Part shown: piece by piece, positions 793 through 61,256 of the stretch
How positions within the stretch are numbered: the first letter of the stretch is position 1
Layout of the letters: each line of letters begins with the position of its first letter
Assembly (NCBI RefSeq): GCF_003018115.1
Contig: NZ_CP027457.1
Strand: one strand, 5' to 3'
DNA from: Escherichia coli
GTDB taxonomy: Bacteria > Pseudomonadota > Gammaproteobacteria > Enterobacterales > Enterobacteriaceae
DNA length: 64,000 bases
Made by a program: the position numbers and the translations under genes
The notes under the pieces: model-generated
Database searches by the model: none
Told to the model about the DNA's origin: nothing
What the model saw: only the letters and a program-made list of their open reading frames with translations

Positions 793-1839
793 TTAATGCT
801 CTGTCGCCAATCTGTCGCCATTGTAGGTCAACGAAGGTTGAGCCTTCCCTTTGTTTGTTATAATTTCATCAAAGATAGCTGGATTATTATCTTTCAGTAA
901 TCTTGCTAGTATAATGATTTGCCCAGACGAGCCATCATCCTTGAATGAAAGGAAATTATCGGTAATATCAAGAATATCAATGGTAAATTTGAAGTAAGTT
1001 TCAATTGTATCGCCAAGCTCAATGCTGGACATGAAGTTAGTAACCATTTCATATCCATCAAAGTATAAAGTTGCATGTTCATTTAACTCCATTGGAGTTA
1101 GGCAAAGCATTCGATTAAGTTCGGATAAGTGTTTTTCTATTGAATGAAGAGATTGCATTTGACGGATTAAAACTTCGTCAAACTGAGAGCCATGATTAGA
1201 TGAATGTATCTTCTCTAGGTTTTTTAGTATATCAACCCAGTGATTATTCACTTCACGTATGTATTCTTTATCTGTATTTTTAGGCCGTCCCTTCTCTGGT
1301 GAGCTATTTATGAAAATATATCTATATAGATGTATTGGGTAGTTAATTTTATAACTTATCTCTTTAGTACCATAATGACGTTCGCGTTTAATGGTTTTGT
1401 TAGGTAAATTGGTGAAATAATCAGTAACGAACTTTAGATGGCTATAGTAGCTATCAGATAGATTCTTTTGCTTGGTTTCCTCAATTTGTCGGTTTGTTTG
1501 AACTGTGCGGTGTATGTTTGCTACGACAGCAACAAATGGTATGGACAAAGAAAGTAAGGCGATAGGAAGCTTGCTAATTGCAATGAAATTATTAAAGCCC
1601 TCACTATCAAATTGAGGGGAATGTCCAAGCCAGGAAAATATACCAAAGTATATCGCTGAAAATACAGGAATCCTAAGTGATTGTTTAAATAAGTATTGAC
1701 TTGTTAATGGCCTTTCATCCATGTTAAAGCCTTTTTTTGATACGCATAGATATAATTCAAGGCATATATATAAAAAATATATTATGATAAGTAAGTACGA
1801 TATCCATGGGTATTGTTGGATATAGTTATTAACAAACAC
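793..1839 (-). CDS. hypothetical membrane protein (about 3 N-terminal TM helices plus ~230-aa soluble domain); AT-rich cargo between int and attL
   Basis: 348-codon ORF with GTG start at 1837-1839 preceded by GGAG; hydrophobic segments WISYLLIIIYFLYICLELYL, IPVFSAIYFGIFSWLG, LPIALLSLSIPFVAVVANI; AT-rich relative to phage backbone; no recognisable catalytic motif. Confidence 0.55.
   Translation of the reverse strand: MFVNNYIQQYPWISYLLIIIYFLYICLELYLCVSKKGFNMDERPLTSQYLFKQSLRIPVFSAIYFGIFSWLGHSPQFDSEGFNNFIAISKLPIALLSLSIPFVAVVANIHRTVQTNRQIEETKQKNLSDSYYSHLKFVTDYFTNLPNKTIKRERHYGTKEISYKINYPIHLYRYIFINSSPEKGRPKNTDKEYIREVNNHWVDILKNLEKIHSSNHGSQFDEVLIRQMQSLHSIEKHLSELNRMLCLTPMELNEHATLYFDGYEMVTNFMSSIELGDTIETYFKFTIDILDITDNFLSFKDDGSSGQIIILARLLKDNNPAIFDEIITNKGKAQPSLTYNGDRLATEH
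801..821. repeat. tandem direct repeats CTGTCGCCA(A/T), candidate integrase arm-type (P') sites
   Basis: CTGTCGCCAAT CTGTCGCCAT about 95-115 bp from the core; same 10-mer occurs as an inverted pair at 34808..34846 near attR. Confidence 0.4.
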
Positions 1840-2868
1840 TTTCTAATTTTCTCCATCCAAGGTTAGCAAGAGGATTTTTGGTTACAGCATCTTCCAGATG
1901 GTCGGGAGCGAAGTGGGCGTAAATCATTGTCATTTTTATATCGACATGGCCCAGAATATCGCGCAGCACCAGTATGTTTCCGCCATTCATCATAAAGTGA
2001 CTTGCAAATGTATGTCGTAATACGTGTGTGCATTGCCCTTCTGGTAGCTCGATGCCAGCTCGTTTTACCGCACGTTCAAAAGCTTTCCTACAAGGTGTAA
2101 ATAATTTTCCCCTATTCTTAGGCAGTTCTTCATATAAATCCTTTGAAATAGGCACTGTTCGGTTTTTCTTTCCTTTAGTCTTGGTATAAGTGATACGGTA
2201 TTTTGACACCTGATGACTCTGCAGGTTTTCGGCTTCGCTCCAGCGTGCGCCGGTGGCCAAGCATATTTTTGCAATCATCAGCAGACTGGGGCTTTGAGAA
2301 TCAGCACAGGCATCCAGCAGACGTTTAATTTCTTCCGGGGTCAGGAACGCCAATTCACCCTCAGCAATTTTAAATGTTGGCAGCCCAGCAAGCGGGTTGG
2401 GGGCTGCCAGTGGCCCAGCTTTTTCAGTGTACCAAAAACAGATGATAGGTTGCGCTGTTCAAGATTTACCGTGCGGGGCTTAACGGGCGACATAAGCGTG
2501 CCATCTTCATTTCGTACTTCACCTTTTAACCGTGCTTCGCGGTATTTCGTAAACTCACCAGCTGTCAGTTCTGAGGCGATGGGATCGCCTAGACCATTAC
2601 AGATAATTCTAAGTTTCGCCATGAGGCGCTTGGGGTCTGCGAGTGTTTGACCATACAGGGAATACCACAGCTCAATTAATTCTGATAGATGTCGCCGATC
2701 TTCCTTTTCCCCTAGCCATGGTTTTTTGTTCACTTCTTCCATTGTGAAGCTTTCAAACGCAATGGCTTCGCCTTTGGTAGCAAATTGCTTACGCACGCGC
2801 TTACCATTGCGTCCATTGGGATAGCACTCACACAACCATTTTCCGTTCGGCTGTTTTCTGATGGTCAT
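1829..2868 (-). pseudogene. int: P2-family tyrosine integrase, interrupted by an apparent 1-nt frameshift in a G5 run (2399..2403)
   Basis: Two overlapping ORFs (2341..2868 N-terminal part, 1829..2353 catalytic part with ...HVLRHTFASHF...MIYAHF motifs); adding one G/C to the homopolymer gives a continuous ...HWQPPNPLAGLPTFKIAEGELAFLTPEEI... reading. Confidence 0.7.
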
Positions 2869-5446: not shown

Positions 5447-6300
5447 GCACCATCCTGAAATGGGCGGGTAATAAAACCGCCGTTATGTCCGAACTGAAAA
5501 AATACCTTCCTGCTGGCCCGCGACTGGTTGAACCTTTCGCGGGTTCCTGTGCAGTGATGATGGAGACGGATTACCCAAGCTATCTGGTAGCGGATATTAA
5601 TCCTGATTTAATCAACCTCTATAAAAAGGTTGCTGCTGATTGTGAGGTGTTTATATCTCGCGCCAGAATTTTGTTTGAGGAAGCAAACAGTGAGCTGGCT
5701 TATTACAACATAAGGCAGGAGTTTAATTACTCAACTGAAATTACTGATTTCATGAAATCGGTATATTTCCTGTATCTCAATCGTCATGGTTACCGTGGGT
5801 TATGTCGCTATAACAAGAGCGGGCATTTCAACATTCCCTACGGTAATTATAAAAAACCGTATTTCCCTGAAAAAGAAATTCGCGCATTTGCAGAGAAAGC
5901 CCAGCGGGCAACGTTTATCTGCGCCAGCTTTGATGAAACGCTGGCGATGTTGAAGGCGGGGGATGTGGTGTATTGCGATCCGCCGTATGACGGTACGTTT
6001 TCCGGCTATCACACTGATGGCTTCACTGAGGATGACCAGTATCACCTGGCATCCGTTCTTGAACATCGATCATCTGAAGGTCATCCGGTCATTGTTTCTA
6101 ACAGTGACACATCCCTGATTCGTTCGCTGTATCGCAATTTCACTCACCACTACATCAAGGCAAAACGCAGCATCGGCGTGTCGGCTGGCGAGAGTAAATC
6201 TGCAACAGAAATCATTGCTGTTTCCGGGGCGCGCTGCTGGGTGGGATTTGATCCTTCGCGTGGCGTGGATAGTTCTGCTGTGTACGAGGTGCGTGTATGA
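5443..6300 (+). CDS. dam: DNA adenine methyltransferase (Dam-like, probable GATC N6-adenine MTase), orphan
   Basis: Motif [10 protein letters not shown] and motif IV DPPY; strong similarity pattern to E. coli Dam ([24 protein letters not shown]); ATG 5443 with GGAGGTG RBS. Confidence 0.85.
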
Positions 6301-8711
6301 GTCATGACGATATGAGCAACTCTAGCGGCTTTAACGAGGCCGCAGCAGCATTTTCATGGAACGGCCCGAAAAAGGCCATTAACCCTTATCTGGACCCGGC
6401 GGAAGTTGCGCCGGAGTCTGCACTTTCAAACATGATCACTCTGTACGCTGCCGATAACGAGCAGGAACAGCTGCGCCGCGATGCACTGAGTGAGCAGGTC
6501 TGGGAGCGTTATTTCTTTAATGAATCCCGTGATCCTGTCCAGCGCGAAATGGAGCAGGATAAGCTCATTAGCCGCGCAAAGCTTGCGCATGAGCAGCAGC
6601 GTTTTAACCCGGACATGGTCATTCTGGCAGATGTCAGCGCCCAGCCTACCCACATCAGCAAGCCGCTGATGCAACGTATCGAATACTTCAGTAGCCTGGG
6701 CAGGCCAAAGGCTTATTCCTGCTATTTGCGTGAGACGATTAAGCCATGTCTGGAGCGACTGGATTGTGTACGCGACAGTCAGCTATCCGCTTCTTTCCGT
6801 TTTATGGCAAGCCATCAAGGGCTTGAGGGCCTGCTGATCCTGCCTGAAATGAGTCAGGATCAGGTAAAACGCCTGTCCACCCTGGTAGCAGCGCATATGA
6901 GCATGTGTCTTGAGGTCGCTTGTGGTGATTTGTATGCCACCGATGACGTTAAGCCAGAAGAAATCCGCAAGGCATGGGAAAAGGTGGCAGCGGAAACCCT
7001 GCGTCTGGATGTTATCCCGCCTGCGTTTGAGAAACTTCGTCGGAAAAGAAACCGCCGCAAACCAGTGCCCTATGAACTCATACCGGGTTCGATGGCACGT
7101 ATGCTTTGCGCCGACTGGTGGTATCGAAAATTGTGGAAGATGCGTTGCGAATGGCGGGAAGAGCAGTTGCGTGCTGTCTGTCTGGTCAGCAAAAAAGCAT
7201 CTCCCTATGTCAGCTATGAAGCAGTGACGCATAAACGTGAGCAGCGCCGCAAGTCGCTGGAGTTTTTCCGTTCTCATGAACTGGTGAACGAAGACGGAGA
7301 CACGCTGGATATGGAAGATGTGGTAAACGCCAGCAGCAGCAACCCGGCACATCGCCGAAATGAGATGATGGCCTGCGTTAAAGGTCTGGAGCTTATCGCG
7401 GAAATGCGTGGTGACTGCGCCGTTTTCTACACTATCACCTGTCCGTCACGTTTCCATTCCACGCTAAATAACGGCAGGCCCAACCCGACCTGGACAAATG
7501 CGACTGTAAGACAAAGCAGTGATTATCTGGTCGGCATGTTTGCTGCATTTCGTAAGGCGATGCACAAAGCCGGGTTGCGTTGGTATGGCGTGCGGGTGGC
7601 TGAGCCGCACCATGACGGTACTGTGCACTGGCATCTTATGTGCTTCATGCGTAAAAAAGACCGCCGCGCCATCACTGCATTACTGCGTAAGTTTGCCATC
7701 CGTGAAGACCGCGAGGAGCTGGGCAATAACACTGGGCCGCGCTTTAAGTCTGAGCTGATTAATCCGCGCAAAGGAACGCCGACAAGCTACATCGCGAAAT
7801 ATATCAGTAAGAACATTGACGGGCGTGGTCTGGCTGGCGAGATCAGCAAGGAAACGGGTAAATCTCTGCGTGATAACGCTGAATACGTGAATGCCTGGGC
7901 GTCTCTGCATCGTGTTCAGCAATTCCGCTTCTTTGGTATTCCGGGGCGTCAGACTTACCGTGAACTGCGATTGCTGGCTGGTCAGGCGGCAAGGCTACAG
8001 GGTGACAAAAAAGCAGGTGCGCCGGTACTGGATAACCCACGTCTTGATGCCATCCTGGCTGCTGCTGATGCTGGCTGTTTTGCGACCTACATCATGAAGC
8101 AGGGCGGCGTGCTGGTTCCCCGCAAATATCACCTTATCAGAACAGCTTATGAAATTAACGAAGAGCCGACCGCCTATGGCGATCACGGTATTCGTATTTA
8201 TGGCATCTGGTCACCCATTGCAGAGGGCAAGATCTGCACTCATGCAGTGAAGTGGAAAATGGTTAGTAAGGCCGTTGACGTTCAGGAGGCGGCAGCCGAC
8301 CAGGGCGCTTGCGCCCCTTGGACTCGTGGCAATAACTGTCCCCTTGCTGAAAATTTGAACCAACAAGGGAAAGACAAATCAGCTGATGGGGACTCCAGAA
8401 CGGATATTACCCGTATGAATGACAAGGAGTTGCACGATTACCTGCACAGTATGAGCAAAAAAGAGCGCCGGGAACTGGCTGCAAGGTTACGCCAGGTGAA
8501 ACCGAAACGGCGTAAAGACTACAAACAGCGAATTACAGACCATCAGCGACAGCAGCTCGTCTATGAACTGAAGTCCAGGGGATTTGATGGCAGCGAGAAA
8601 GAAGTCGATTTGCTCCTTCGCGGCGGCAGTATTCCGTCAGGAGCAGGCCTGCGTATCTTCTATCGGAACCAGCGTCTGAAGGAAGATGATAAGTGGCGGA
8701 ACCTGTATTAA
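6297..8711 (+). CDS. A: replication initiation endonuclease (P2 gpA-like rolling-circle initiator)
   Basis: 804-aa ORF at the end of the early operon; contains the gpA-family AKYISKN region and HWHLMCFM motif. Confidence 0.8.
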
Positions 8712-8863: not shown

Positions 8864-9052
8864 ATGCAGGACTATTTTTTGGAGTCTTTGAAGCTCCAGC
8901 GCATTGATTTTTTTCTTAAGCTTGTAGCGGCTAGTGAGTGTAGTGATGAAGAGAAGGGGCTGGCTCTGCAGTGGGTTTCTGAATTGACTGATGAACTCAT
9001 GGCAAAAATCAGAAGCCACGAATACAACCGCTCAATGGATGTCATCAGCTGA
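8864..9052 (+). CDS. small SOS-inducible protein, possible Tum-like antirepressor
   Basis: 62-aa ORF with AGGAGG RBS directly downstream of the LexA box; 186-like position after gene A. Confidence 0.45.
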   Translation: MQDYFLESLKLQRIDFFLKLVAASECSDEEKGLALQWVSELTDELMAKIRSHEYNRSMDVIS

Positions 9053-9062
9053 GGTGACTTTT

Positions 9063-9296
9063 ATGCGCATTGAAATAATGATCGATAAAGAGCAGAAGAT
9101 TAGCCAGTCTACCCTGGACGCCCTTGAATCCGAGCTTTACCGCAATCTGCGCCCCCTGTATCCCAAAACGGTAATTCGCATTCGCAAAGGTAGCTCTAAC
9201 GGTGTGGAACTAACCGGACTGCAACTGGATGAAGAAAGAAAACAAGTGATGAAAATTATGCAGAAGGTGTGGGAGGACGACAGCTGGCTGCATTAA
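9063..9296 (+). CDS. DinI-family protein
   Basis: 77 aa from ATG 9063 (RBS GAGGTG); MRIEIMIDKEQ...WEDDSWLH resembles DinI (MRIEVTI...W..ADDW). Confidence 0.7.
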   Translation: MRIEIMIDKEQKISQSTLDALESELYRNLRPLYPKTVIRIRKGSSNGVELTGLQLDEERKQVMKIMQKVWEDDSWLH

Positions 9297-9488
9297 GAAA
9301 TGTTGCCCCCAGGAGGATTCATTCTGATGGGGGCTAGTTTGGGCAATGAGTGAAATAAGGCGTAAGGTGGGCGGTTATTTTGATAAGTGATCGTCCGCTT
9401 TGTGTCAGAAGCAGAAGCGGGAGTGTCTGAGACTCTCTAAAAGTTGATGATTCACTTACAAAACCATTTTCCTGATGGATGCTTACAC

Positions 9489-9824
9489 TTACGAATGATC
9501 ATTCTGTTTAGTCTTCATGAGAAAATCCCGAATCTTTGCCAAGTTTGAATTTTCGGGGATTGAATCCATGTACGGATCACGCTCAAACACTAATTGCTCA
9601 GATTCAACGAAAGCCTGCCACTCTACTGGGTCTAGCTCAAATCCCATTGCTGTCATATCACTTTCATCTTCCCCCTCGATCCAGTGGACTAAATAAAACA
9701 ATTCATCATCAGGAGAATCATCCTCACCATCAACAATATCAACATCGGTTACAGTGATACGTAGGGTGGGATCGATTTTTGAGACATAAATTCCTAACTG
9801 TGGTATAGGGGGAATATTGTTCAT
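9489..9824 (-). CDS. hypothetical highly acidic small protein (about 26 D/E in 111 aa), candidate DNA mimic, anti-restriction or immunity factor
   Basis: Strong RBS AAGGAG 6 nt before ATG (9822-9824); divergent from the DUF262 gene across the cos region; AT-rich. Confidence 0.6.
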   Translation of the reverse strand: MNNIPPIPQLGIYVSKIDPTLRITVTDVDIVDGEDDSPDDELFYLVHWIEGEDESDMTAMGFELDPVEWQAFVESEQLVFERDPYMDSIPENSNLAKIRDFLMKTKQNDHS

Positions 9825-10165
9825 GGAAACTCCTTTTATTGGTGTTTGCTATTTGAATAAAAATACGCCAAACAGAGTGTTAACTGTGAATATGGAAAGA
9901 ATCGTTGTAAGTACCCCACTTAGGTGTCCCATTCTATTTTAGAGGTTCTCGTGCATATGGATTATGTTATCTGAAAGTTAACTTCCGCTTCCCGTTCACA
10001 GCGAACATTCATCTTTGTAAACCCGTATGATCCGTTTTTCAAGTGGCCATTCAGATACGGATTTTCACTTCCTTGACAGTGCATGACTATGCTGCATGAA
10101 ATCGCATGATCGATTGAGGATCGTCTTTGCTCAGATCCGCCAGAACTGGCGGGCTTTTGCTCATG

Positions 10166-10181
10166 TCATGCATGTGCATGA
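10166..10181. repeat. perfect palindrome TCATGCA-TG-TGCATGA beside cos; related GCATGA direct repeats at 10081, 10094, 10104
   Basis: Read directly; candidate terminase or regulator binding site. Confidence 0.4.
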
Positions 10182-10203
10182 AAACCACTGCATAAAGCGG
10201 GCA

Positions 10204-10222
10204 GGCGTGGCGGGGATACGAG
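10204..10222. other. candidate cos cohesive-end site GGCGTGGCGGGGATACGAG
   Basis: First 13 nt match the P2/186 cohesive-end sequence as recalled (GGCG(A/T)GGCGGGGAAAGCA...); lies between the right-end tum region and Q as in P2/186. Confidence 0.4.
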
Positions 10223-10356
10223 CGCGCTCTGATATGAAAATCTGAACAAAAAATTACAAAATGGTATCTTTTTGTTGCTATCATCATTTTTGATGGTAAC
10301 TTAACCTTTTCAGTTTCTATATTATAAAATTCTATCCAGAAGAAGGAATTTGTTTC

Positions 10357-12138
10357 ATGGCTGAACTATTACCGCAAACAACTTCTATACAAACTATTTA
10401 TTCATGGTTTACTGAAGGTAAGATATTTGTTAATAGACGTTATCAACGAAAATTAGTTTGGACTGCAATAGAGAAACAAAAATTAATTGAATCCATTCAA
10501 AAAAAATATCCAATTCCTGCAGTTCTTCTCGCGGAAAGGGAAAATGATCCTGGCACATATGAAATAATTGATGGCCTACAAAGATTACATGCAATAATGT
10601 CTTTCATCGAAACAGGATATGAATCACTTGATGGAAAACGTTTTAATCTGGACGCTTTTCCCACAGCGAAAAATCGAGCGGATGAAGGTAAGTTTGTTGC
10701 AGTGAAAGCTGATAATCTTTTAAGTCAGCGTGAGGTTACTCAGTTATTGGATTATTCTCTTGCAATGTCCATTATGCGTAATGCGACTGAGAACGAAATA
10801 AATGATGTTTTTGATAGAATTAATACATACGGGCATAGACTTAGTGATCAAGAAAGGCGCCAGGCTGGTATACAAAATAAATTTTCAAATATGGTTAGGG
10901 ATATTGCCTGTTCTATCAGGGGGGATGTATCTGACGACATATTGCTTTTAGAGCAAATGCCGTCTATTAGCATTGATTTGCCACTAACTAAACATGGTTA
11001 CCAAATTCAGTCGGAAGAAGTATTTTGGGTAAAACATGGGATCTTACGTTCAACAGACCTTCGTGACAGTATGGATGAGCAATGCATTGCAGATATAGCA
11101 GCTTGTATTGTTGGAGGTAAGTTAATAGATCGTTCCAAAGATGCGCTTGATCAGATTTATAATAATGAAGATGAAGAGTATAGTCGTATTAGCTCTGCTA
11201 TTAATGTTTATGGTGAAGGAAAATTTGCAGAAGAGTTTAAATTCTGCATCCAGGAAATAACAAAAGTATGTAATAGTGACGGTGAAATTAAACTCAGGGA
11301 TTTAATCTTTACTAAACGTACTACAAATGCTTTCCCAGCCATATTTGCTGTGTTATTTATTGCTTTTCATGAATTACTCATTAAAGAAAATAAGAAGATT
11401 AATAATTATAAAGGTGTAAAAGACAATCTTAATAATATAGTCACTCGACTAGATACTAAAAGATCTGCTACTGGTGGGGAAGAGAGAAGAAAGAATATTA
11501 ATTCTATCATAGGCTTGATTAAAGATAACTTTATTGATAGCGCCGATAGCAGTCATATCTATAATTCTCACAATACGGTGGATATTGAGGATATTTTACG
11601 AAGATCTGAAATAGAGCTTGCAAATTATGAACTGAAACAGGGTTTGTTGATGTTAGGCGGAGAGCGAACTATTGATGATGGCATTCATGAGAAAATATTC
11701 TCCACAATTTGTGCTATTGCTAACATCGGTAAAGGTAACAAGAACGGTGTAGTTGGTAAGTTATTGCTTGGTGTAACAGATAAACCAAGTGATACAAGTA
11801 GAGTAAAAGAGCTTGATGATATAGATGCACATGTAGTTGGTGAGAGAAGTGTTGTTGGTGTTAAAAGAGAAGCTATTAAACTCGGCATATCAATGGAAGA
11901 ATATTATAGACGTTTTTGCGATGAGTTGAAAAAATCTGCTTTGAGTGAGCCTCTTAAATCACAAGTGGTGAGTTTGATTGACTATAATGACTTTTATGGT
12001 TATGGAGTTATAGTTATTACAATTCCACTTCTAGCATCTTATTCTAGTTATGATGGGGATATTTATTATCGTGCTGGCGATAATACCGTAAAAGCAACAG
12101 TTATCGAAGCAGCAGATATTGCAACACGTTTTAAATGA
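10357..12138 (+). CDS. DUF262 (ParB/GmrS-like NTPase/nuclease-fold) N-domain fused to Schlafen/AlbA_2-like C-domain; candidate anti-phage defence protein
   Basis: 593 aa; N-terminal RRYQRKLVW and IIDGLQRLHA motifs (DUF262 signature); C-terminal ELANYELKQ...ICAIANIGKGNKNGVVGKLLLGVTD...IYYRAGDNT resembles AlbA_2/Schlafen core; no H-N-H/DUF1524 motif; AT-rich; between cos and portal gene. Confidence 0.7.
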   Translation: MAELLPQTTSIQTIYSWFTEGKIFVNRRYQRKLVWTAIEKQKLIESIQKKYPIPAVLLAERENDPGTYEIIDGLQRLHAIMSFIETGYESLDGKRFNLDAFPTAKNRADEGKFVAVKADNLLSQREVTQLLDYSLAMSIMRNATENEINDVFDRINTYGHRLSDQERRQAGIQNKFSNMVRDIACSIRGDVSDDILLLEQMPSISIDLPLTKHGYQIQSEEVFWVKHGILRSTDLRDSMDEQCIADIAACIVGGKLIDRSKDALDQIYNNEDEEYSRISSAINVYGEGKFAEEFKFCIQEITKVCNSDGEIKLRDLIFTKRTTNAFPAIFAVLFIAFHELLIKENKKINNYKGVKDNLNNIVTRLDTKRSATGGEERRKNINSIIGLIKDNFIDSADSSHIYNSHNTVDIEDILRRSEIELANYELKQGLLMLGGERTIDDGIHEKIFSTICAIANIGKGNKNGVVGKLLLGVTDKPSDTSRVKELDDIDAHVVGERSVVGVKREAIKLGISMEEYYRRFCDELKKSALSEPLKSQVVSLIDYNDFYGYGVIVITIPLLASYSSYDGDIYYRAGDNTVKATVIEAADIATRFK

Positions 12139-12141
12139 AAG

Positions 12142-12163
12142 AACGCCTGCTCAGGCAGGCGTT
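12142..12163. terminator. bidirectional hairpin terminator between DUF262 gene and Q
   Basis: AACGCCTGC-tcag-GCAGGCGTT perfect 9-bp stem. Confidence 0.55.
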
Positions 12164-12178
12164 AATTATAAACAGGAA

Positions 12179-13207
12179 CTACAAAATATATTTATTAAAT
12201 GTAATTATATTTTCATCCAGCCAACAATTAAGCGCTTGCATCAATTTTTGCAAAGGTAAAAGCTCATTCCGCACAAATACCTTACTAGCTTTCTCTACAT
12301 CCCCAAACCCCCCGACATTGCTAGGCATAATCCCCATCATTTGCGGCGGTACGCGGTGCGCCGCCATCATGTCGTCCCGGCTCACGTTCTTGATATTCAG
12401 AAACTCATCCTTCGCCGCGACTTCTGACAGAGGAATGATCTGAAGCCCATCCTTTTTGCCGTTAGGCGAGTACATAAACAGGTTGCGGAAGTTACCCGGT
12501 CCTTTGGCGCTTTTCATTGCGTTGCGGAGGTTGTTCACATCCTCCTGGTTTTGCGCGGCATCGGTCATGTACATGATGAAGCCTGCATGACTGCCGTTAA
12601 TGTAATACTTCCGGCGGAACAGCGTGGCGGACTCGTTGAGCAGGGCTGACGGAATGGCAGAAAGATAACCGGGCAGGCCGTAGATCTCCTGGTTGATATC
12701 CGGTTCCATCAGGTGAAAAATGCTGCCTTTCGTGAACTGATACGGTTGCGTTGTCATGCCGTATTGCACAAACCAGTAGGTATCCAGGTCTAATCCACGT
12801 CGGGTGTATTTTGCCAGGGCAGGCTCAAGGGCGATAACTTCACCGAATCGGTTCGTGCGTTTCTCCAGGTAGGCGTTACCAAATACCAGATAGTCCTGCA
12901 CAAAACGCGAAAAAGCCTGCTGGCTGAGCAGCGGATGAGGGATATAGGTACTGGTCAGAATGTTGCACTTTACTGCAATCGGGGAACTGTGATGCACGGC
13001 GGCGCGGAAGGTGCGCGCCAGTCCGTCAAAGCTGACGGGCGGCTCATACCAGCGGTCCATCTGTACGCATTCCACATAGTCCAGCAGTTCACGGCGGTCC
13101 AGAACAGGAACGGGATCGCCGAAGCTGAATGCTTCGGCTGTAGTTTGACTTTTAAGCTGGATCTGTTTCGTCGCCGCAGCTCGGTTCTTCTTACTCTTTC
13201 CCATCAA
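12179..13207 (-). CDS. Q: portal protein (P2 gpQ-like)
   Basis: 342 aa, P2 Q size and position, translationally coupled to P. Confidence 0.85.
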   Translation of the reverse strand: MMGKSKKNRAAATKQIQLKSQTTAEAFSFGDPVPVLDRRELLDYVECVQMDRWYEPPVSFDGLARTFRAAVHHSSPIAVKCNILTSTYIPHPLLSQQAFSRFVQDYLVFGNAYLEKRTNRFGEVIALEPALAKYTRRGLDLDTYWFVQYGMTTQPYQFTKGSIFHLMEPDINQEIYGLPGYLSAIPSALLNESATLFRRKYYINGSHAGFIMYMTDAAQNQEDVNNLRNAMKSAKGPGNFRNLFMYSPNGKKDGLQIIPLSEVAAKDEFLNIKNVSRDDMMAAHRVPPQMMGIMPSNVGGFGDVEKASKVFVRNELLPLQKLMQALNCWLDENIITFNKYIL

Positions 13208-24835: not shown

Positions 24836-24855
24836 TTTTATTCAGGGTGATTTAT

Positions 24856-25299
24856 ATGAACGAATATGTTTATAGCGCAAGGCATAATGCTTTTTTCCCT
24901 GTGGATATGATTGATAAATATAAATCAGAGGGATGGGATTTATCAGACGCTAAGGAAGTAAATCAAAATATTATCAGTGAGTTTATGGCTGAACCGCCAC
25001 AAGGAAAAATCCGTATTGCCGGAGATGATGGGCTGCCTGCGTGGGCAGATATTCCTCCACCCACGCATGAAGAGCTTATTGAAATTACTGAATCAGAAAG
25101 ACAGCTACTAATTAACCAGGCCAACGAATACATGAACAGTAAGCAATGGCCCGGTAAAGCCGCTATTGGTCGTCTGAAAGGTGAGGAACTGGCGCAATAT
25201 AATTTGTGGCTGGATTATCTGGACGCACTGGAGCTGATCGATACTTCCGGTGCGCCAGATATTGAATGGCCTACGCCTCCGGCAGTTCAGGCCAGATGA
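24856..25299 (+). CDS. tail fibre assembly protein (Tfa, gpG/U-like)
   Basis: Follows the fibre gene in current orientation. Confidence 0.75.
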   Translation: MNEYVYSARHNAFFPVDMIDKYKSEGWDLSDAKEVNQNIISEFMAEPPQGKIRIAGDDGLPAWADIPPPTHEELIEITESERQLLINQANEYMNSKQWPGKAAIGRLKGEELAQYNLWLDYLDALELIDTSGAPDIEWPTPPAVQAR

Positions 25300-25873
25300 C
25301 ATCCGGCGCTGTGCTGGTATCTGTTGCCGTCACCGCGTCAATGTAATCCAGCACAGCGTTAAGGCGGGTTGTTTCTGCCTGCGTCAGCTTCCGTCCGGCC
25401 TGTAATTTCAGTTGAATCAGACTGATGGAGGCCATTGCAGTATCAATCAGCGACTGGCGCTGTGCTTCTGCTGCATCTACTGCTGCGCCGTGCTGTGCCT
25501 TGGTATCTGTCACCCATTTCTCACCATTCCATTCATCGTATGGCGTTAACGGGGCGATAGTGGTTGTATTTTCAGGATAATCACCCGGAGCTGTGATTTC
25601 TTTCGATTCTCCTGTTTCGATGCTATAGACGATTTCACCGCGATGATCTGGCACATATTCCCATGAATTTAAATTCACAGAACGACAGATTGCATAACCA
25701 ACCTTATGTATGCCTGGTGCATCAAGACAGGAACATGCCGGAATACCGACACCAACAGCAAGATATTCAGTTGACGTGGAAATATATTCCCGTGTTTCAC
25801 CATCGTAGTTATAAACGGTAACATCCCCTGCCTTTGTTGCAATAAGGTCACTATTTAATATTGCTTTATGCAT
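25271..25873 (-). CDS. alternative tail fibre assembly protein (Tfa')
   Basis: 200 aa on opposite strand within invertible segment; C-terminal ...DTSTAPDVIWPELPEA parallels Tfa ...DTSGAPDIEWPTPPA. Confidence 0.75.
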   Translation of the reverse strand: MHKAILNSDLIATKAGDVTVYNYDGETREYISTSTEYLAVGVGIPACSCLDAPGIHKVGYAICRSVNLNSWEYVPDHRGEIVYSIETGESKEITAPGDYPENTTTIAPLTPYDEWNGEKWVTDTKAQHGAAVDAAEAQRQSLIDTAMASISLIQLKLQAGRKLTQAETTRLNAVLDYIDAVTATDTSTAPDVIWPELPEA

Positions 25874-26370
25874 CAGGCTGCCCTCACGATATAATTAAAT
25901 GCAATATTACGCGGACGCGTTTCTGAGGCTGCGGCACCTAAACCAGCCACTGATTGTTTATATGTTTTAAAGGTTCCATAATCCGGTGCTGGTAATCCGG
26001 CATCGTTTGTGTTTCCTCTTTTGATAATGTCAGTGCCACTATTTACCCAGCTTTCATCAAAATAGAAATTAATAGTTGCATCAGTCACAATCGTGGATCT
26101 TGACGGTAATCCATGAGCATGATCCTCCGTTGCATATCCCTGAATACTTAAAATAGAGCGACCTGTATCAATCCCCGCCCGTCATCCCAGCCACGAATAA
26201 ACTCACCACGTAAATCAGGCAATTTATTTGTCGGGTAAACTTTTGCCAGTTCCGGGTATTCTTCAGCAGAAAAAGCTGCACCATTGCATTTCAGCCAGCC
26301 TGTAGGCGGAGTGGCTGAAGGCCACGGAACAGGGACACCAACAGGTAATGCAGAGCCTTCTCCCAAACCA
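25873..26370 (-). other. alternative tail-fibre variable C-terminal segment (H'), promoterless, with apparent frameshift at C4 run 26173..26176
   Basis: Minus-strand reading from the crossover site: ...GLGEGSALPVGVPVPWPSATPPTGWLKCNGAAFSAEEYPELAKVYPTNKLPDLRGEFIRGWDDGRG, then frame shifts to ...DTGRSILSIQGYATEDHAHGLPSRSTIVTDATINFYFDE... Confidence 0.6.
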
Positions 26371-26383
26371 ACGTTTATGAAAA
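26358..26383. repeat. invertase crossover site (right), TTCTCCCAAACC-AA-CGTTTATGAAAA
   Basis: Inverted relative to left site; core dinucleotide AA vs TT. Confidence 0.6.
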
Positions 26384-26438
26384 TGCAGAGATAATGGCTA
26401 ACTGGCATCATCCCCGGTTTTTATTCAGGGGATTGATC

Positions 26439-27005
26439 ATGCTTATTGGCTATGTACGCGTGTCAACAAATGACCAGAACACCGATTTGCAACGTAATGC
26501 ACTGAACTGCGCGGGATGTGAGCGGATTTTTGAGGACAAAATCAGTGGCACTAAGTCCGACAGACCGGGGCTTAAAAAACTGCTCAGGACACTATCGGCA
26601 GGTGACACACTGGTTGTCTGGAAGCTGGACAGGTTGGGGCGCAGTATGCAGCATCTTGTTACGCTGATAGAAGAGTTGCGCCAGCGTGGCGTGAATTTCC
26701 GAAGCCTGACTGACAGTATTGATACCAGTACCCCAATGGGCCGTTTCTTTTTTCATGTCATGGGTGCCCTGGCTGAAATGGAACGCGAACTGATAGTTGA
26801 ACGTACCAGGGCAGGGCTGGCTGCAGCTCGTGCCAAAGGCAGAGTAGGTGGGCGTCGTCCTAAGTTGACCACCGAACAGTGGGCACAGATTGGACGTTTA
26901 CTCGAGGCCGGAGAATCAAGACAGCGTATTGCACTGATTTTTGATGTGGGCGTTTCTACCATTTATAGAAAATTTCCGGTGAATGAGAGCAATGAATCGC
27001 CCTGA
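26439..27005 (+). CDS. serine DNA invertase (Gin/Hin/Cin/Pin family)
   Basis: MLIGYVRVSTNDQNTDLQRNAL (catalytic Ser in VRVST) and C-terminal HTH; 188 aa. Confidence 0.9.
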   Translation: MLIGYVRVSTNDQNTDLQRNALNCAGCERIFEDKISGTKSDRPGLKKLLRTLSAGDTLVVWKLDRLGRSMQHLVTLIEELRQRGVNFRSLTDSIDTSTPMGRFFFHVMGALAEMERELIVERTRAGLAAARAKGRVGGRRPKLTTEQWAQIGRLLEAGESRQRIALIFDVGVSTIYRKFPVNESNESP

Positions 27006-34279: not shown

Positions 34280-34300
34280 AACCTGCTACGGCAGGTTTTT
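34280..34300. terminator. bidirectional Rho-independent terminator
   Basis: AACCTGC-tacg-GCAGGTT followed by TTTT; serves ogr (+) and the convergent WYL-BRCT gene (-). Confidence 0.65.
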
Positions 34301-34781
34301 ATTCATCTGGGATCTCACCCGTTTCAAGAAAATGTATAAAGCCAGGCTCATCTATGATGATTGTGCCTTTCATCCTGGCTGCCGATACTTTTGATGGGCC
34401 TGCATTGTAACCGCAACAGAGCATCTGAAGGCTTTGGGTTACAGAGGTTCTTACCGTTAATCCTTGTTCATTCGCCTTATCAACCAATCTTTCTTTATCT
34501 GCTTTCTTAAATCCGGTGAAACACACATCGAATGTATTTTTTTTCGGACCAGACTGCTTAGTGAGATGTGAGTAGCTTTCGGGGAGGAATGACGCGCATT
34601 CCTGAATGGCTTGTTCTGGTGAATCGTACTGTTTAAGAATGCGGTCTTTTCGGAAGGTTTTTATTCGATCGGTGTTCTTACAAATGCCCTGTATATGATT
34701 TTCGCTATAACTGATGCTCTGTATAGAGTGAACACCGATACGACCATTTGCATTGATGTAAACAAAGTGAAGTTCTTCCAT
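34299..34781 (-). CDS. small WYL-domain plus BRCT-domain protein, cargo between ogr and attR
   Basis: 160 aa; N-terminal FVYINANGRIGVHSI...GICKNTDRIKTFRKDRI (WYL-like, ends in the FRxDRI signature); C-terminal DVCFTGFKKADKERLVDKANEQGLTVRTSVTQSLQMLCCGYNAGPSKVSAARMKGTIIIDEPGF (BRCT-like); RBS AGAGG before ATG at 34779-34781. Confidence 0.6.
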   Translation of the reverse strand: MEELHFVYINANGRIGVHSIQSISYSENHIQGICKNTDRIKTFRKDRILKQYDSPEQAIQECASFLPESYSHLTKQSGPKKNTFDVCFTGFKKADKERLVDKANEQGLTVRTSVTQSLQMLCCGYNAGPSKVSAARMKGTIIIDEPGFIHFLETGEIPDE

Positions 34782-34904: not shown

Positions 34905-35267
34905 TGGTGGAGCTGGCGGGAGTTGAACCCGCGTCCGAAATTCCTACATCCTCGGTACTACATGCTTAGTCAGTCTTTACATTCGCTTGCCAGCTGCGGA
35001 CGGACACGCCACTAACAAACTAGCCTGATTAAGTTTTAACGCTTCAACCCCTGGCAGGGCTTCCACGCGATCTCTTTTGGGTTTGACCTCTCTTGATCCC
35101 CGTCCTAAGAGCGGAGGCTAGGGAGAGAGGGCTCTAAGCAGGTTATTAAGCTGCTAAAGCGTAGTTTTCGTCGTTTGCGACTATTTTTTGCGGCTTTTTA
35201 CGAGGCCAACCGCCCCTCGGCATGCACCTTGGGTTTCGCAAATCCCGTCGAATCCAGAATCAGCCCC
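34905..35267 (-). ncRNA. ssrA: tmRNA (SsrA), complete; 3' 45 nt form attR
   Basis: Reverse complement matches the E. coli tmRNA from GGGGCTGATTCTGGATTCGACGGG to ...GGTTCAACTCCCGCCAGCTCCACCA, including the tag-encoding region. Confidence 0.95.
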
Positions 35268-35481: not shown

Positions 35482-35964
35482 TTAACGGTGGGCGTTTTTC
35501 ATGATACGCGCTTTATCCACCTGCCATTCGCGCTCTTTGATATCTGAACGTTTATCGTGCTGTTTCTTACCTTTGGCGACGCCGATTTTCACTTTGCACC
35601 AGGCATTTTTCCAGTACAGGGAGAGCGCCACTACGGTATAGCCTTCTCGATTGACGCGACCGTACAATGAGTCCAGTTCGCGCTGGTTGAGAAGTAACTT
35701 GCGGGTACGGGTAGGGTCGCACACCACATGCGTGGAGGCCACGGCCATTGGCGTGATGTTAGCGCCAAACAGAAATGCCTCTCCGTCACGCAGAAGGACG
35801 TAGCTGTCGCTGATATTGGCTTTTCCTGCGCGCAGGGATTTAACTTCCCAGCCTTGCAGGGCAAGTCCCGCTTCGAACTCTTCTTCGATAAAGTATTCGT
35901 GACGGGCGCGCTTGTTAAGCGCGATGGTCGCTGAACCAGGTTTATGTGCTTTTTTCTTCGTCAT
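35482..35964 (-). CDS. smpB: SsrA-binding protein SmpB
   Basis: 160 aa, directly upstream of ssrA on same strand; sequence as E. coli SmpB. Confidence 0.95.
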
Positions 35965-52959: not shown

Positions 52960-52982
52960 AGTGTTGCCTTTTTGTTATCAAT

Positions 52983-53010
52983 AAAAAAGGCCCCCCGATT
53001 TGGGAGGCCT
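52983..53010 (-). terminator. pheA attenuator terminator hairpin
   Basis: GC-rich near-perfect inverted repeat (GGCCCCCC...GGGAGGCC) followed by U-run on the minus strand, between pheL and pheA. Confidence 0.55.
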
Positions 53011-53057
53011 TATTGTTCGTCTTCGCATTCTGTTTCACACGACGAAACGCCTCCCAT

Positions 53058-53105
53058 TCAGGGGAAGGTAAAAAAGAATGCGAAGAAAAACGGTATGTGT
53101 TTCAT
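53058..53105 (-). CDS. pheL: phe operon leader peptide PheL ([15 protein letters not shown])
   Basis: 15-codon ORF with seven Phe codons upstream of pheA. Confidence 0.9.
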
Positions 53106-53208
53106 GTTTGTTTCCTTAAGTGACTTTAGTACAGTACCCGTACTGTTTTCACGCTGTCAACAAAAAACGCGCCCGAAGGCGCGTTGGCGATACACTCAAT
53201 ATAAAGGA

Positions 53209-56407: not shown

Positions 56408-56536
56408 CCTAAAGAATCAAGACGATCCGGTACGCGTGATTTTCTTTTCACATTAATCTGGTCAATAACCTTGAATAATTGAGGGATGACCTCATTTAAT
56501 CTCCAGTAGCAACTTTGATCCGTTATGGGAGGAGTT

Positions 56537-59110
56537 ATGCGTCTGGATCGTCTTACTAATAAATTCCAGCTTGCTCTTGCCGATGCCCAATCACTTGCAC
56601 TCGGGCACGACAACCAATTTATCGAACCACTTCATTTAATGAGCGCCCTGCTGAATCAGGAAGGGGGTTCGGTTAGTCCTTTATTAACATCCGCTGGCAT
56701 AAATGCTGGCCAGTTGCGCACAGATATCAATCAGGCATTAAATCGTTTACCGCAGGTTGAAGGTACTGGTGGTGATGTCCAGCCATCACAGGATCTGGTG
56801 CGCGTTCTTAATCTTTGCGACAAGCTGGCGCAAAAACGTGGTGATAACTTTATCTCGTCAGAACTGTTCGTTCTGGCGGCACTTGAGTCTCGCGGCACGC
56901 TGGCCGACATCCTGAAAGCAGCAGGGGCGACCACCGCCAACATTACTCAAGCGATTGAACAAATGCGTGGAGGTGAAAGCGTGAACGATCAAGGTGCTGA
57001 AGACCAACGTCAGGCTTTGAAAAAATATACCATCGATCTTACCGAACGAGCCGAACAAGGCAAACTCGATCCGGTGATTGGTCGTGATGAAGAAATTCGC
57101 CGTACCATTCAGGTGCTGCAACGTCGTACTAAAAATAACCCGGTACTGATTGGTGAACCCGGCGTCGGTAAAACTGCCATCGTTGAAGGTCTGGCGCAGC
57201 GTATTATCAACGGCGAAGTGCCGGAAGGGTTGAAAGGCCGCCGCGTACTGGCGCTGGATATGGGCGCGCTGGTGGCTGGGGCGAAATATCGCGGTGAGTT
57301 TGAAGAACGTTTAAAAGGCGTGCTTAACGATCTTGCCAAACAGGAAGGCAACGTCATCCTGTTTATCGACGAATTACATACCATGGTCGGCGCGGGTAAA
57401 GCCGATGGCGCAATGGACGCCGGAAACATGCTGAAACCGGCGCTGGCGCGTGGTGAATTGCACTGCGTAGGTGCCACGACGCTTGACGAATATCGCCAGT
57501 ACATCGAAAAAGATGCTGCGCTGGAACGTCGTTTCCAGAAAGTGTTTGTTGCCGAGCCTTCTGTTGAAGATACCATTGCGATTCTGCGTGGCCTGAAAGA
57601 ACGTTACGAATTGCACCACCATGTGCAAATTACTGACCCGGCAATTGTTGCAGCGGCGACGTTGTCTCATCGCTACATTGCTGACCGTCAGCTGCCGGAT
57701 AAAGCCATCGACCTGATCGATGAAGCAGCATCCAGCATTCGTATGCAGATTGACTCAAAACCAGAAGAACTCGACCGACTCGATCGCCGTATCATCCAGC
57801 TCAAACTGGAACAACAGGCGTTAATGAAAGAGTCTGATGAAGCCAGTAAAAAACGTCTGGATATGCTCAACGAAGAACTGAGCGACAAAGAACGTCAGTA
57901 CTCCGAGTTAGAAGAAGAGTGGAAAGCAGAGAAGGCATCGCTTTCTGGTACGCAGACCATTAAAGCGGAACTGGAACAGGCGAAAATCGCTATTGAACAG
58001 GCTCGCCGTGTGGGGGACCTGGCGCGGATGTCTGAACTGCAATACGGCAAAATCCCGGAACTGGAAAAGCAACTGGAAGCCGCAACGCAGCTCGAAGGCA
58101 AAACTATGCGTCTGTTGCGTAATAAAGTGACCGACGCCGAAATTGCTGAAGTGCTGGCGCGTTGGACGGGGATTCCGGTTTCTCGCATGATGGAAAGCGA
58201 GCGCGAAAAACTGCTGCGTATGGAGCAAGAACTGCACCATCGCGTTATTGGTCAGAACGAAGCGGTTGATGCGGTATCTAACGCTATTCGTCGTAGCCGT
58301 GCGGGGCTGGCGGATCCAAATCGCCCGATTGGTTCATTCCTGTTCCTCGGCCCAACTGGTGTGGGGAAAACTGAGCTTTGTAAGGCGCTGGCGAACTTTA
58401 TGTTTGATAGCGACGAGGCGATGGTCCGTATCGATATGTCCGAGTTTATGGAGAAACACTCGGTGTCTCGTCTGGTTGGTGCGCCTCCGGGATATGTTGG
58501 TTATGAAGAAGGTGGCTACCTGACCGAAGCTGTGCGTCGTCGTCCGTATTCCGTTATCCTGCTGGATGAAGTGGAAAAAGCGCATCCGGATGTCTTCAAC
58601 ATTCTGTTGCAGGTACTGGATGATGGGCGTCTGACTGACGGGCAGGGGAGAACGGTCGACTTCCGTAATACGGTTGTCATTATGACCTCTAACCTCGGTT
58701 CAGATCTGATTCAGGAACGCTTCGGTGAACTGGATTATGCGCACATGAAAGAGCTGGTGCTCGGTGTGGTTAGCCATAACTTCCGTCCGGAATTCATTAA
58801 CCGTATCGATGAAGTGGTGGTCTTCCATCCGCTGGGTGAACAGCACATTGCGTCGATTGCGCAGATTCAGTTGAAACGTCTGTATAAACGTCTGGAAGAA
58901 CGTGGTTATGAAATCCACATTTCTGACGAGGCGCTGAAACTGCTGAGCGAGAACGGTTACGATCCGGTCTATGGTGCACGTCCTCTGAAACGTGCAATTC
59001 AGCAGCAGATCGAAAACCCGCTGGCACAGCAAATACTGTCTGGTGAATTGGTTCCGGGTAAAGTGATTCGCCTGGAAGTTAATGAAGACCGGATTGTCGC
59101 CGTCCAGTAA
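56537..59110 (+). CDS. clpB: disaggregase chaperone ClpB
   Basis: 857 aa from [11 protein letters not shown]; two Walker A boxes GEPGVGKT and GPTGVGKT. Confidence 0.95.
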
Positions 59111-59553: not shown

Positions 59554-61095
<1,542 letters not shown>

Positions 61096-61180: not shown

Positions 61181-61256
61181 GTCCCCTTCGTCTAGAGGCC
61201 CAGGACACCGCCCTTTCACGGCGGTAACAGGGGTTCGAATCCCCTAGGGGACGCCA
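61181..61256 (+). tRNA. gltW: tRNA-Glu (UUC) in the 16S-23S spacer
   Basis: GTCCCCTTCGTCTAGAGGCCCAGGACACCGCCCTTTCACGGCGGTAACAGGGGTTCGAATCCCCTAGGGGACGCCA, 76 nt. Confidence 0.95.

Follow-up and report, generated by a model that had tools for sequence, protein, structure and literature searches.

What does a low-GC gene contribute when it lies between a cos-like site and the portal gene of a P2-like prophage? We addressed this question in a 64,000-nucleotide stretch of an Escherichia coli genome (NCBI RefSeq assembly GCF_003018115.1, contig NZ_CP027457.1), called the window below. The gene, at 10357..12138 on the plus strand, is a complete open reading frame (ORF) with an ATG start that encodes 593 amino acids plus a stop, and its product is a fusion of DUF262, helical ParBDB-like and Schlafen/AlbA_2 parts. 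The protein is identical to WP_000818977.1, to which RefSeq gives the product name 'GmrSD restriction endonuclease domain-containing protein'. We consider it likely that this gene protects against phages as a one-protein system belonging to the DUF262-Schlafen class, and that the prophage carries it as an accessory in its gpA-gpQ hotspot near cos.

A relative of a published defence class

The class itself has been described. In their survey of 5,930 prokaryotic Schlafens (pSlfn) in 55 architectures, Perez Taboada et al. (bioRxiv July 2025, PMC12330615; Nature Microbiology 2026, PMC13056530) counted DUF262-Slfn fusions as 1.8% of the total, and seven Enterobacterales pSlfn systems were assayed from their native promoters in MG1655 (PMC13056530). 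One of the seven, EcoSlfn7, a DUF262-Slfn fusion of E. coli UC4224, reduced the plating of many phages, most strongly that of T7 (538-fold; PMC13056530). An earlier reading of the window, made from the DNA letters and their translations (the sequence-only reading), had presented the gene as an undescribed defence whose domain combination matched no named system. That claim has to be withdrawn, because DUF262-Slfn is an explicit class in the work of Perez Taboada et al. and EcoSlfn7 was shown to defend. The window protein combines in one polypeptide the two marks of a DUF262-Slfn fusion, a PF04326 domain longer than 100 residues and PF03235.

A search of the UC4224 genome returned one homologue, WP_028985442.1 (589 amino acids), which we presume to be EcoSlfn7. 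Aligned with the window protein over 592 residues, with four gaps, it is 60% identical and 77% similar, and the identity by region is 71% in DUF262, 56% in the helical part and 54% in the Schlafen part. Its gene, too, lies in a P2-like prophage between the DinI-like and portal genes, where the same cos-like sequence precedes it by about 60 bp. Judged by sequence and position, the window gene is related to a defence class that has been published and has experimental support, and it occupies the prophage hotspot in which the UC4224 gene also lies; the window allele would be expected to defend as well.

Domain architecture and family

The N-terminal part of the protein (about residues 10-180; 10384..10896, plus strand) is a ParB-type DUF262/GmrSD_N domain, predicted to act as a nucleoside triphosphate (NTP)-binding sensor or switch. 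The Pfam model GmrSD_N/DUF262 (PF03235) matched residues 16-170 of the window protein with an E-value of 1.6e-22, and it also matched all 96 relatives that we aligned, which bears out the DUF262 N-domain proposed by the sequence-only reading. The middle region (about residues 181-405; 10897..11571, plus strand) is mainly helical in the AlphaFold2 model and resembles NsnA-C/ParBDB, a putative DNA-binding part of the sensor. The C-terminal part (about residues 406-593; 11572..12135, plus strand) is a single Schlafen/AlbA_2 unit, the predicted ribonuclease (RNase) effector. Here the Pfam match of the window protein to SLFN_AlbA_2 (PF04326) covered residues 445-580 with an E-value of 0.016 and was sub-threshold, and 67 of the 96 relatives matched the same model at E<=1e-3, with a best value of 2.7e-10.

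The AlphaFold2 model, built from 42 sequences, reached a mean predicted local distance difference test score (pLDDT) of 80 and a predicted template modelling score (pTM) of 0.76. Its Foldseek matches were 3lmm, BrxU, SLFN11, SLFN12, SLFN14 and SLFN5, and ParB. In the fold comparison the C-terminus has the Schlafen fold, and the N-terminal DUF262 domain is similar to those of BrxU and SspE. A single-sequence search of PDB sequences gave noise only (ribosomal protein L9 and an HNH protein, E>0.005). The Schlafen signal, weak in the single sequence, is made solid by the relatives and the structure, and the Schlafen/AlbA_2 C-domain of the sequence-only reading is likewise supported by the fold comparison and by a profile alignment with SLFN11 described below.

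The family is large. More than 100 full-length homologues of 588-594 residues and about 60% identity were found, most of them already annotated with both PF03235 and PF04326, and at E<=1e-30 an exhaustive search of 1.84 billion cluster representatives returned 273 clusters (defined at 50% identity), most of them covering the full length with 27-56% identity to the query. The ORF is therefore not a chance one, and hundreds of clusters from several phyla keep the whole architecture of about 590 residues. Full-length homologues were not found by tblastn among 50,697 phage records, which gave only DUF262-only matches at 26-40% identity; the gene is therefore absent from the P2-like phage genomes of that collection. 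The PHROGs search returned a full-length match to phrog_26759, a family of unknown function, together with weak ParB hits, and NCBIfam offered no specific model for the window protein, only a sub-threshold ParB hit (TIGR00180).

The best match in PADLOC was NsnA of the Menshen system (residues 7-383 against model positions 49-370 of 385, E 8e-31), followed by a match to PD-T4-2_A (E 2e-18) that was restricted to the DUF262 part (residues 14-184). These two matches, the first of which spans nearly the whole model, could mean that the gene is what remains, orphaned or degenerate, of a DUF262 system of several genes (the Menshen NsnA or the A subunit of PD-T4-2) whose partners have been lost, and that it is inactive or depends on genes elsewhere. 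We regard this as scarcely credible, given that the effector domain is fused in cis in an architecture so widely kept, that the ORF is intact with invariant motifs, and that neither an NsnB-type ABC ATPase gene nor an NsnC gene lies adjacent to it in the window, where the neighbours are a 111-residue ORF, cos and the phage core genes for portal and terminase, or at the loci of other genera. Membership in Menshen (NsnABC) was accordingly rejected for want of partner genes, and the two-gene system PD-T4-2 was rejected because a partner B gene is missing and the match is limited to the DUF262 part.

Conserved motifs and predicted active sites

Every motif string quoted in the sequence-only reading, like the ORF itself, could be located in the 593-residue translation of 10357..12138: RRYQRKLVW at residues 27-35, IIDGLQRLHA at 70-79, ELANYELKQ at 420-428, ICAIANIGKGNKNGVVGKLLLGVTD at 451-475 and IYYRAGDNT at 569-577. 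We counted conservation on the alignment of the 96 family sequences, which reach down to 27% identity. The three DUF262 motifs, whose definitions have been published together with the role of DGxQR in phosphate binding (PMC12065111), are all present. Motif I, QRxxxW (Q30-R31-K-L-V-W35; 10444..10461, plus strand), has Q30, R31 and W35 in 96/96 sequences. In motif II, DGxQR (D72-G73-L74-Q75-R76; 10570..10584, plus strand), the predicted phosphate-binding centre, residues D72, G73, Q75 and R76 are equally invariant (96/96). The same is true of F152 and N156 (96/96) in motif III, FxxxN (F152-D-R-I-N156; 10810..10824, plus strand), which aligned with 'FIRMNSGG' of BrxU. R188 and D240 of the helical region are invariant as well. 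Invariant positions are few in this alignment and fall on known motifs.

In the Schlafen domain, conservation and the alignment with SLFN11 point to a predicted catalytic motif Ex4(E/D)xK, E420-L-A-N-Y-E425-L-K427 (11614..11637, plus strand), of the type reported for prokaryotic Schlafen nucleases and human SLFN11 (PMC13056530). E420 and K427 occur in 96/96 sequences, and position 425 is Glu in 48 and Asp in 48. A profile of the C-domain places E420, E425 and K427 in register with E191-x4-E196-x-K198 of pig SLFN11, with a weak E-value (0.04), and this alignment agrees with the fold match of the C-domain. Both the NTP-binding site and the RNase site look intact and appear to be under strong constraint, as far as can be read from the residues, and the intact ORF with its invariant motifs argues for purifying selection. 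The sequence-only reading had left the effector mechanism open; this no longer applies to the effector, which carries the conserved Schlafen RNase motif Ex4(E/D)xK, but it still applies to the trigger and to the role of the DUF262 domain. A separate feature of the domain is a four-residue insertion, KNGV (K462-V465; 11740-11751), in a loop after the conserved 'AIAN' helix, which only 2-5 of the 96 aligned relatives share.

The same motifs bear on the possibility that the protein is a GmrSD-like type IV restriction enzyme, in which DUF262 would recognise modified phage DNA and AlbA_2 would replace DUF1524 as the DNA-binding or DNA-cutting module. The RefSeq product name suggests such an enzyme, the DUF262 domain has its three motifs intact and resembles BrxU and SspE in both sequence and fold, and the AlbA_2 domain of SAMD9 has been deposited as a DNA-binding domain in a complex with DNA (7ksp). 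However, Pfam found no DUF1524 (PF07510) or HNH domain in the window protein or in any of the 96 relatives, as the sequence-only reading had noticed for the protein itself, and it is precisely the Schlafen RNase triad that is conserved. In addition, EcoSlfn7 acted most strongly on T7 (PMC13056530), and the analysis of Menshen likewise proposes DUF262 sensors that feed RNase effectors (PMC12065111). We therefore think a type IV enzyme unlikely, and computation leaves room for a DNA-targeting role of the AlbA_2 domain. A full-length match to GmrSD, BrxU or SspE that includes DUF1524 was looked for and was not found; the protein is not a canonical GmrSD, and that identification was rejected for its lack of DUF1524.

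The prophage locus and the cos-proximal hotspot

Rousset et al. (2022, PMC9122126) defined defence hotspots in P2-like phages, between gpA and gpQ around cos, and in P4, beside cos; the main text of their paper makes no mention of DUF262. In the window, the left boundary of the P2 hotspot is the replication endonuclease gene gpA (6297..8711, plus strand) and the right boundary is the portal gene gpQ (12179..13207, minus strand), which is convergent with the DUF262-Schlafen gene and ends 41 bp past its stop codon. Beyond gpQ come the terminase gene gpP and then the capsid and tail genes of a P2-like prophage, and a DinI-like gene of the prophage lies at 9063-9296. The cos-like core, GGCGTGGCGGGGATACGAG (10204..10222), was recognised by reading the sequence and was then aligned to the P2 cosL record; it lines up both with cosL as annotated in P2, GGCGAGGCGGGGAAAGCAC, and with the matching element that precedes the UC4224 gene. 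By this similarity, GGCGTGGCGGGGATACGAG would be the functional cos; a search with the P2 cos sequence itself that tolerated up to 3 mismatches found nothing. The placement given in the sequence-only reading, between cos and the portal gene in the P2 variable hotspot, thus agrees with the order of the cos-like core, the gene and gpQ.

Homology to phages of the Fels-2/RE2010 type stops at about 10227-10254, some 5-30 bp past the cos-like core, and the cargo begins there. In P2 only 187 bp, including the terminator tQ, separate cosL from Q; in the window, 1.9 kb of low-GC DNA is inserted at this point. The two 1-kb bins over the gene have GC contents of 0.375 and 0.342, and those of the adjacent phage genes are 0.47-0.59. 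The gene therefore has the position of hotspot cargo, between gpA and gpQ beside cos, and related phages have the flanks without it. A repeat search found no direct or inverted repeats flanking the gene that would suggest a transposon or an integration cassette.

The gene may have its own expression signals. A weak sigma-70-like promoter candidate (TTAACC-18-TAAAAT; 10301..10330, plus strand) agrees with the consensus at 9 of 12 positions, and the number of such sites found by the promoter scan in the region was not above that in shuffled sequences, so that this candidate is suggestive only. A putative ribosome-binding site, AAGGA (10343-10347, plus strand), follows on its 3' side and would belong to the defence gene itself. 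A GC-rich hairpin (12142..12163) lies between the convergent stops of the defence gene and Q, in a position equivalent to the P2 terminator tQ. The Rfam scan detected no RNA family inside or adjoining the DUF262-Schlafen gene.

The place of the gene directly beside cos, together with its ParB-superfamily N-domain, to which the weak TIGR00180 and ParB PHROG hits also point, could instead indicate that it serves the prophage, either as a ParB-like DNA-binding protein of the cos region or as an addiction or toxin module such as a lysogeny-stabilising RNase, rather than as a defence against other phages; about 30% of pSlfn genes have no known defence gene in their vicinity (PMC13056530). Such a role is very unlikely in our judgement, considering that most P2-like phages have the flanks without the gene and P2 itself has only its short cosL-Q interval, that close homologues are solitary chromosomal genes outside prophages (the Pluralibacter and cyanobacterial loci), and that the presumed orthologue at the same slot has a reported defence phenotype. 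A phage housekeeping role was rejected because the gene is missing from most relatives.

On the gpA side of cos, the same hotspot holds a second and unexplained piece of cargo, an acidic ORF of 111 residues (9489..9824, minus strand) that belongs to PHROG 17127, of unknown function, has no PADLOC match and is absent from the UC4224 prophage.

Distribution, mobility and solitary occurrence

The window allele (>=99.9% identity) is present in 17 of 5,426 complete E. coli genomes, among them W, KO11FL, UMNK88 and several strains of enterotoxigenic E. coli (ETEC) from pigs. Low GC and such a restricted presence are signs of horizontal acquisition. In E. coli W the identical gene lies in a prophage that is inserted beside ybjL, not ssrA, and has a different integrase and immunity region, so that identical cargo is found in mosaic P2-like prophages at two chromosomal sites (ybjL and smpB-ssrA). 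In E. coli Ec-FL1-1X (NZ_CP066836.1, locus positions 9001-10767), a P4-like satellite at a tRNA-Leu gene holds a third allele, 62% identical, in its psu-int hotspot; nine complete E. coli genomes carry this allele. Outside the species, a Pluralibacter homologue (89% identical) is a lone insertion between housekeeping genes, a Paraburkholderia homologue lies beside phage and transposase remnants, and a cyanobacterial homologue lies beside IS605 and a ParDE pair.

The last three loci have no conserved neighbour in common. Taken over the window, UC4224, P4-satellite, Pluralibacter, Paraburkholderia and cyanobacterial loci, no conserved partner gene was seen, which is what the sequence-only reading had implied in describing a single-gene unit.

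The DUF262-Schlafen class is thus carried in both of the hotspots beside cos, that of P2-like phages and that of P4-like satellites, which explains the movement of the gene between E. coli strains. The main text of the paper that defined the class does not mention a P2 or P4 hotspot location for it (PMC13056530). The window allele and its relatives of about 60% identity in the P2 and P4 hotspots would also provide a natural set of variants for mapping trigger specificity. The presence of the gene in E. coli W and in industrial derivatives such as KO11FL may affect the phage sensitivity of these strains.

As a separate observation, the E. coli W prophage carries a gene for a KAP-family P-loop NTPase between its integrase and CI repressor genes (NC_017664.1, 958306-959757). 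Fusions of KAP NTPases have been reported as anti-phage defences in a 2025 preprint (PMC12632615).

Proposed mechanism and its weight

The existence and the function of the class are already published, and the remaining puzzle is how a ParB-type DUF262 domain controls a Schlafen nuclease. In the mechanism that we propose, the ParB-type DUF262 domain and the helical NsnA-C/ParBDB-like domain would together sense infection in an NTP-dependent manner, most likely by detecting phage DNA or a replication intermediate. Once activated, the sensor would license the C-terminal Schlafen domain, perhaps through a change in nucleotide or oligomeric state that frees it. The Schlafen domain would then cut RNA by means of E420, E425 and K427, most likely transfer RNA (tRNA) in the anticodon arm, and the cleavage would shut down translation and lower the phage yield. 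Defence by the window allele, tRNA as the substrate and DUF262 as the sensor are all three points that we infer.

Probably some feature of DNA or of a nucleotide, and not a hypermodified base, acts as the trigger, because EcoSlfn7 is reported to act most strongly on T7. T7 DNA is not known to contain hypermodified bases, which also speaks against a type IV enzyme. The mean pairwise identity within the family is 43% in DUF262 and 26-27% in the helical and Schlafen regions; the putative sensor is therefore the most conserved part of the protein, which hints that the trigger is conserved too, as a feature of DNA or of a nucleotide would be, and is not a fast-evolving phage protein. Since the bacterial protein has one AlbA_2 unit where SLFN11 has two lobes, activation by dimerisation of the Schlafen domain is an attractive possibility, by analogy with the human protein. 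A tentative proposal, to which we give somewhat less than even credence, is that the DUF262 and helical module senses phage DNA under the control of NTP and itself turns on a Schlafen tRNase. If this is true, the protein would be a bacterial counterpart of the human SLFN11 activated by single-stranded DNA, and a natural case in which the sensor of GmrSD and BrxU has been re-wired from a DNase to an RNase output.

Several points weigh against the assignment to a defence RNase and against parts of this mechanism. AlbA_2 domains can alternatively just bind nucleic acid. The PF04326 match of the window protein is below normal significance, and its Schlafen assignment rests on the relatives, the fold match and the motif. 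The high conservation of DUF262 is the opposite of what was described for the fast-evolving sensor of pSlfn5. WP_028985442.1 was identified with EcoSlfn7 from being the sole homologue found in the UC4224 genome, and at 60% identity to the tested protein, the specificity or even the activity of the window allele could differ. The evidence for tRNA cleavage comes from RorSlfn5 alone, whose sensor is a different, Ig-like one, and the published work on EcoSlfn7 was confined to plating. Finally, five of the seven pSlfn systems gave no defence against the phage panel of the published assays (PMC13056530).

On balance, a better name for WP_000818977.1 would be DUF262-Schlafen defence protein with a predicted RNase effector. 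The present RefSeq name is misleading, and PADLOC 2.0 sees the window protein only as an orphan NsnA-like protein.

Other features of the prophage and the window

The prophage integrase (1829-2868, minus strand) is split into two overlapping ORFs of 175 and 174 residues, which align to residues 1-159 and 172-336 of the intact 343-residue integrase of the UC4224 prophage. The split implies a frameshift near 2341-2353, so that the prophage may be unable to excise, unless it is a sequencing error. Just past the integrase, at the left edge of the prophage, there is an AT-rich ORF of 348 residues (793-1839, minus strand; the 1001-2000 bin has 34.8% GC). By eye its N-terminal stretch looks hydrophobic; it has a full-length match to PHROG 17460, of unknown function, and a weak PADLOC match to '2TM effector' (E 2e-4), and it is possibly a further accessory or defence gene.

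Two tail-fibre-assembly genes in opposite orientation (24847-25299, plus strand, and 25271-25873, minus strand) lie beside a DNA invertase gene (26394-27005), an arrangement (24847-27005) that resembles the invertible Gin/Cin-type switches of host range; the corresponding region in E. coli W has an IS3 insertion. The right end of the prophage adjoins smpB (35482-35964, minus strand) and the transfer-messenger RNA gene ssrA (34905-35267, minus strand), the likely attachment site. An ORF of 160 residues (34299-34781, minus strand) in a low-GC bin (44%) separates ssrA from the last phage genes; its similarity to the C-terminal parts of LigA and of a DEDDh exonuclease is only weak. Outside the prophage, the window contains a Phe leader (52981-53106, minus strand), the small RNA RyfD (56418-56556) and a ribosomal RNA operon, with 16S at 59554-61095, a tRNA at 61181-61253 and 23S from 61450 to the end of the window.

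Comparison with known systems

Among the Schlafens, the only pSlfn with a detailed mechanism is RorSlfn5 of Raoultella ornithinolytica, a fusion of Schlafen and immunoglobulin (Ig)-like parts in which the tail assembly chaperone of T5 triggers cleavage of the tRNA anticodon arm (PMC13056530). The window protein has an effector of the same family (the RorSlfn5 motif is E15-x4-D20-x-K) and the same single-gene sensor-effector logic. In RorSlfn5, however, the nuclease is N-terminal, so that the domain order is reversed, the Ig-like sensor binds the T5 chaperone, and protection is limited to T5. Human SLFN11, like SLFN12, SLFN13, SLFN14 and the AlbA_2 domain of SAMD9, is more distant, with about 11-18% sequence identity. 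Its nuclease domain consists of two lobes, the N-lobe and the C-lobe, whereas the bacterial protein has one AlbA_2 unit, which Perez Taboada et al. superimposed on the C-lobe (PMC13056530). Its sensor is a helicase domain and not DUF262. SLFN11 is switched on by single-stranded DNA, and Schlafen nucleases cut tRNA (PMC13056530).

GmrSD, BrxU and SspE share with the window protein an N-terminal DUF262 domain with QRxxxW, DGxQR and FxxxN, a helical domain that follows it, and a sensor-effector layout in a single polypeptide. The DUF262 domain of GmrSD and SspE senses modified phage DNA and activates the fused nuclease through NTPase activity, and in SspE the helical domain after DUF262 is needed for DNA binding (PMC12065111). 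They differ from the window protein in their C-terminal DUF1524 HNH DNase, which is replaced here by a Schlafen RNase domain, so that the likely target is RNA and not modified DNA.

The Menshen NsnA, proposed as a DNA sensor upstream of an RNase effector (PMC12065111), has the same combination of ParB-DUF262 and a ParBDB-like helical domain, and its model is matched almost end to end by residues 7-383. Menshen, however, consists of three genes, with the ABC ATPase NsnB as transducer and a separate effector, NsnC, whereas in the window protein the effector is fused directly.

With respect to location, the window gene is on the Q side of cos, unlike the P2 genes old and tin, which are found on its gpA side, and the proteins of these and other hotspot genes are unrelated to the DUF262-Schlafen protein. 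What old, tin and the other gpA-cos-gpQ cargo have in common with it is the variable cos-adjacent locus that carries anti-phage genes (PMC9122126).

The closest of these systems is the presumed EcoSlfn7. It differs from the window protein in 40% of residues, mostly in the helical and Schlafen regions, and the K462-V465 insertion is found in the window protein. The two have the same three-part architecture (589 and 593 residues), the same Ex4ExK and DGLQR motifs, and the same slot in a P2-like prophage, downstream of a cos-like sequence and convergent with the portal gene Q.

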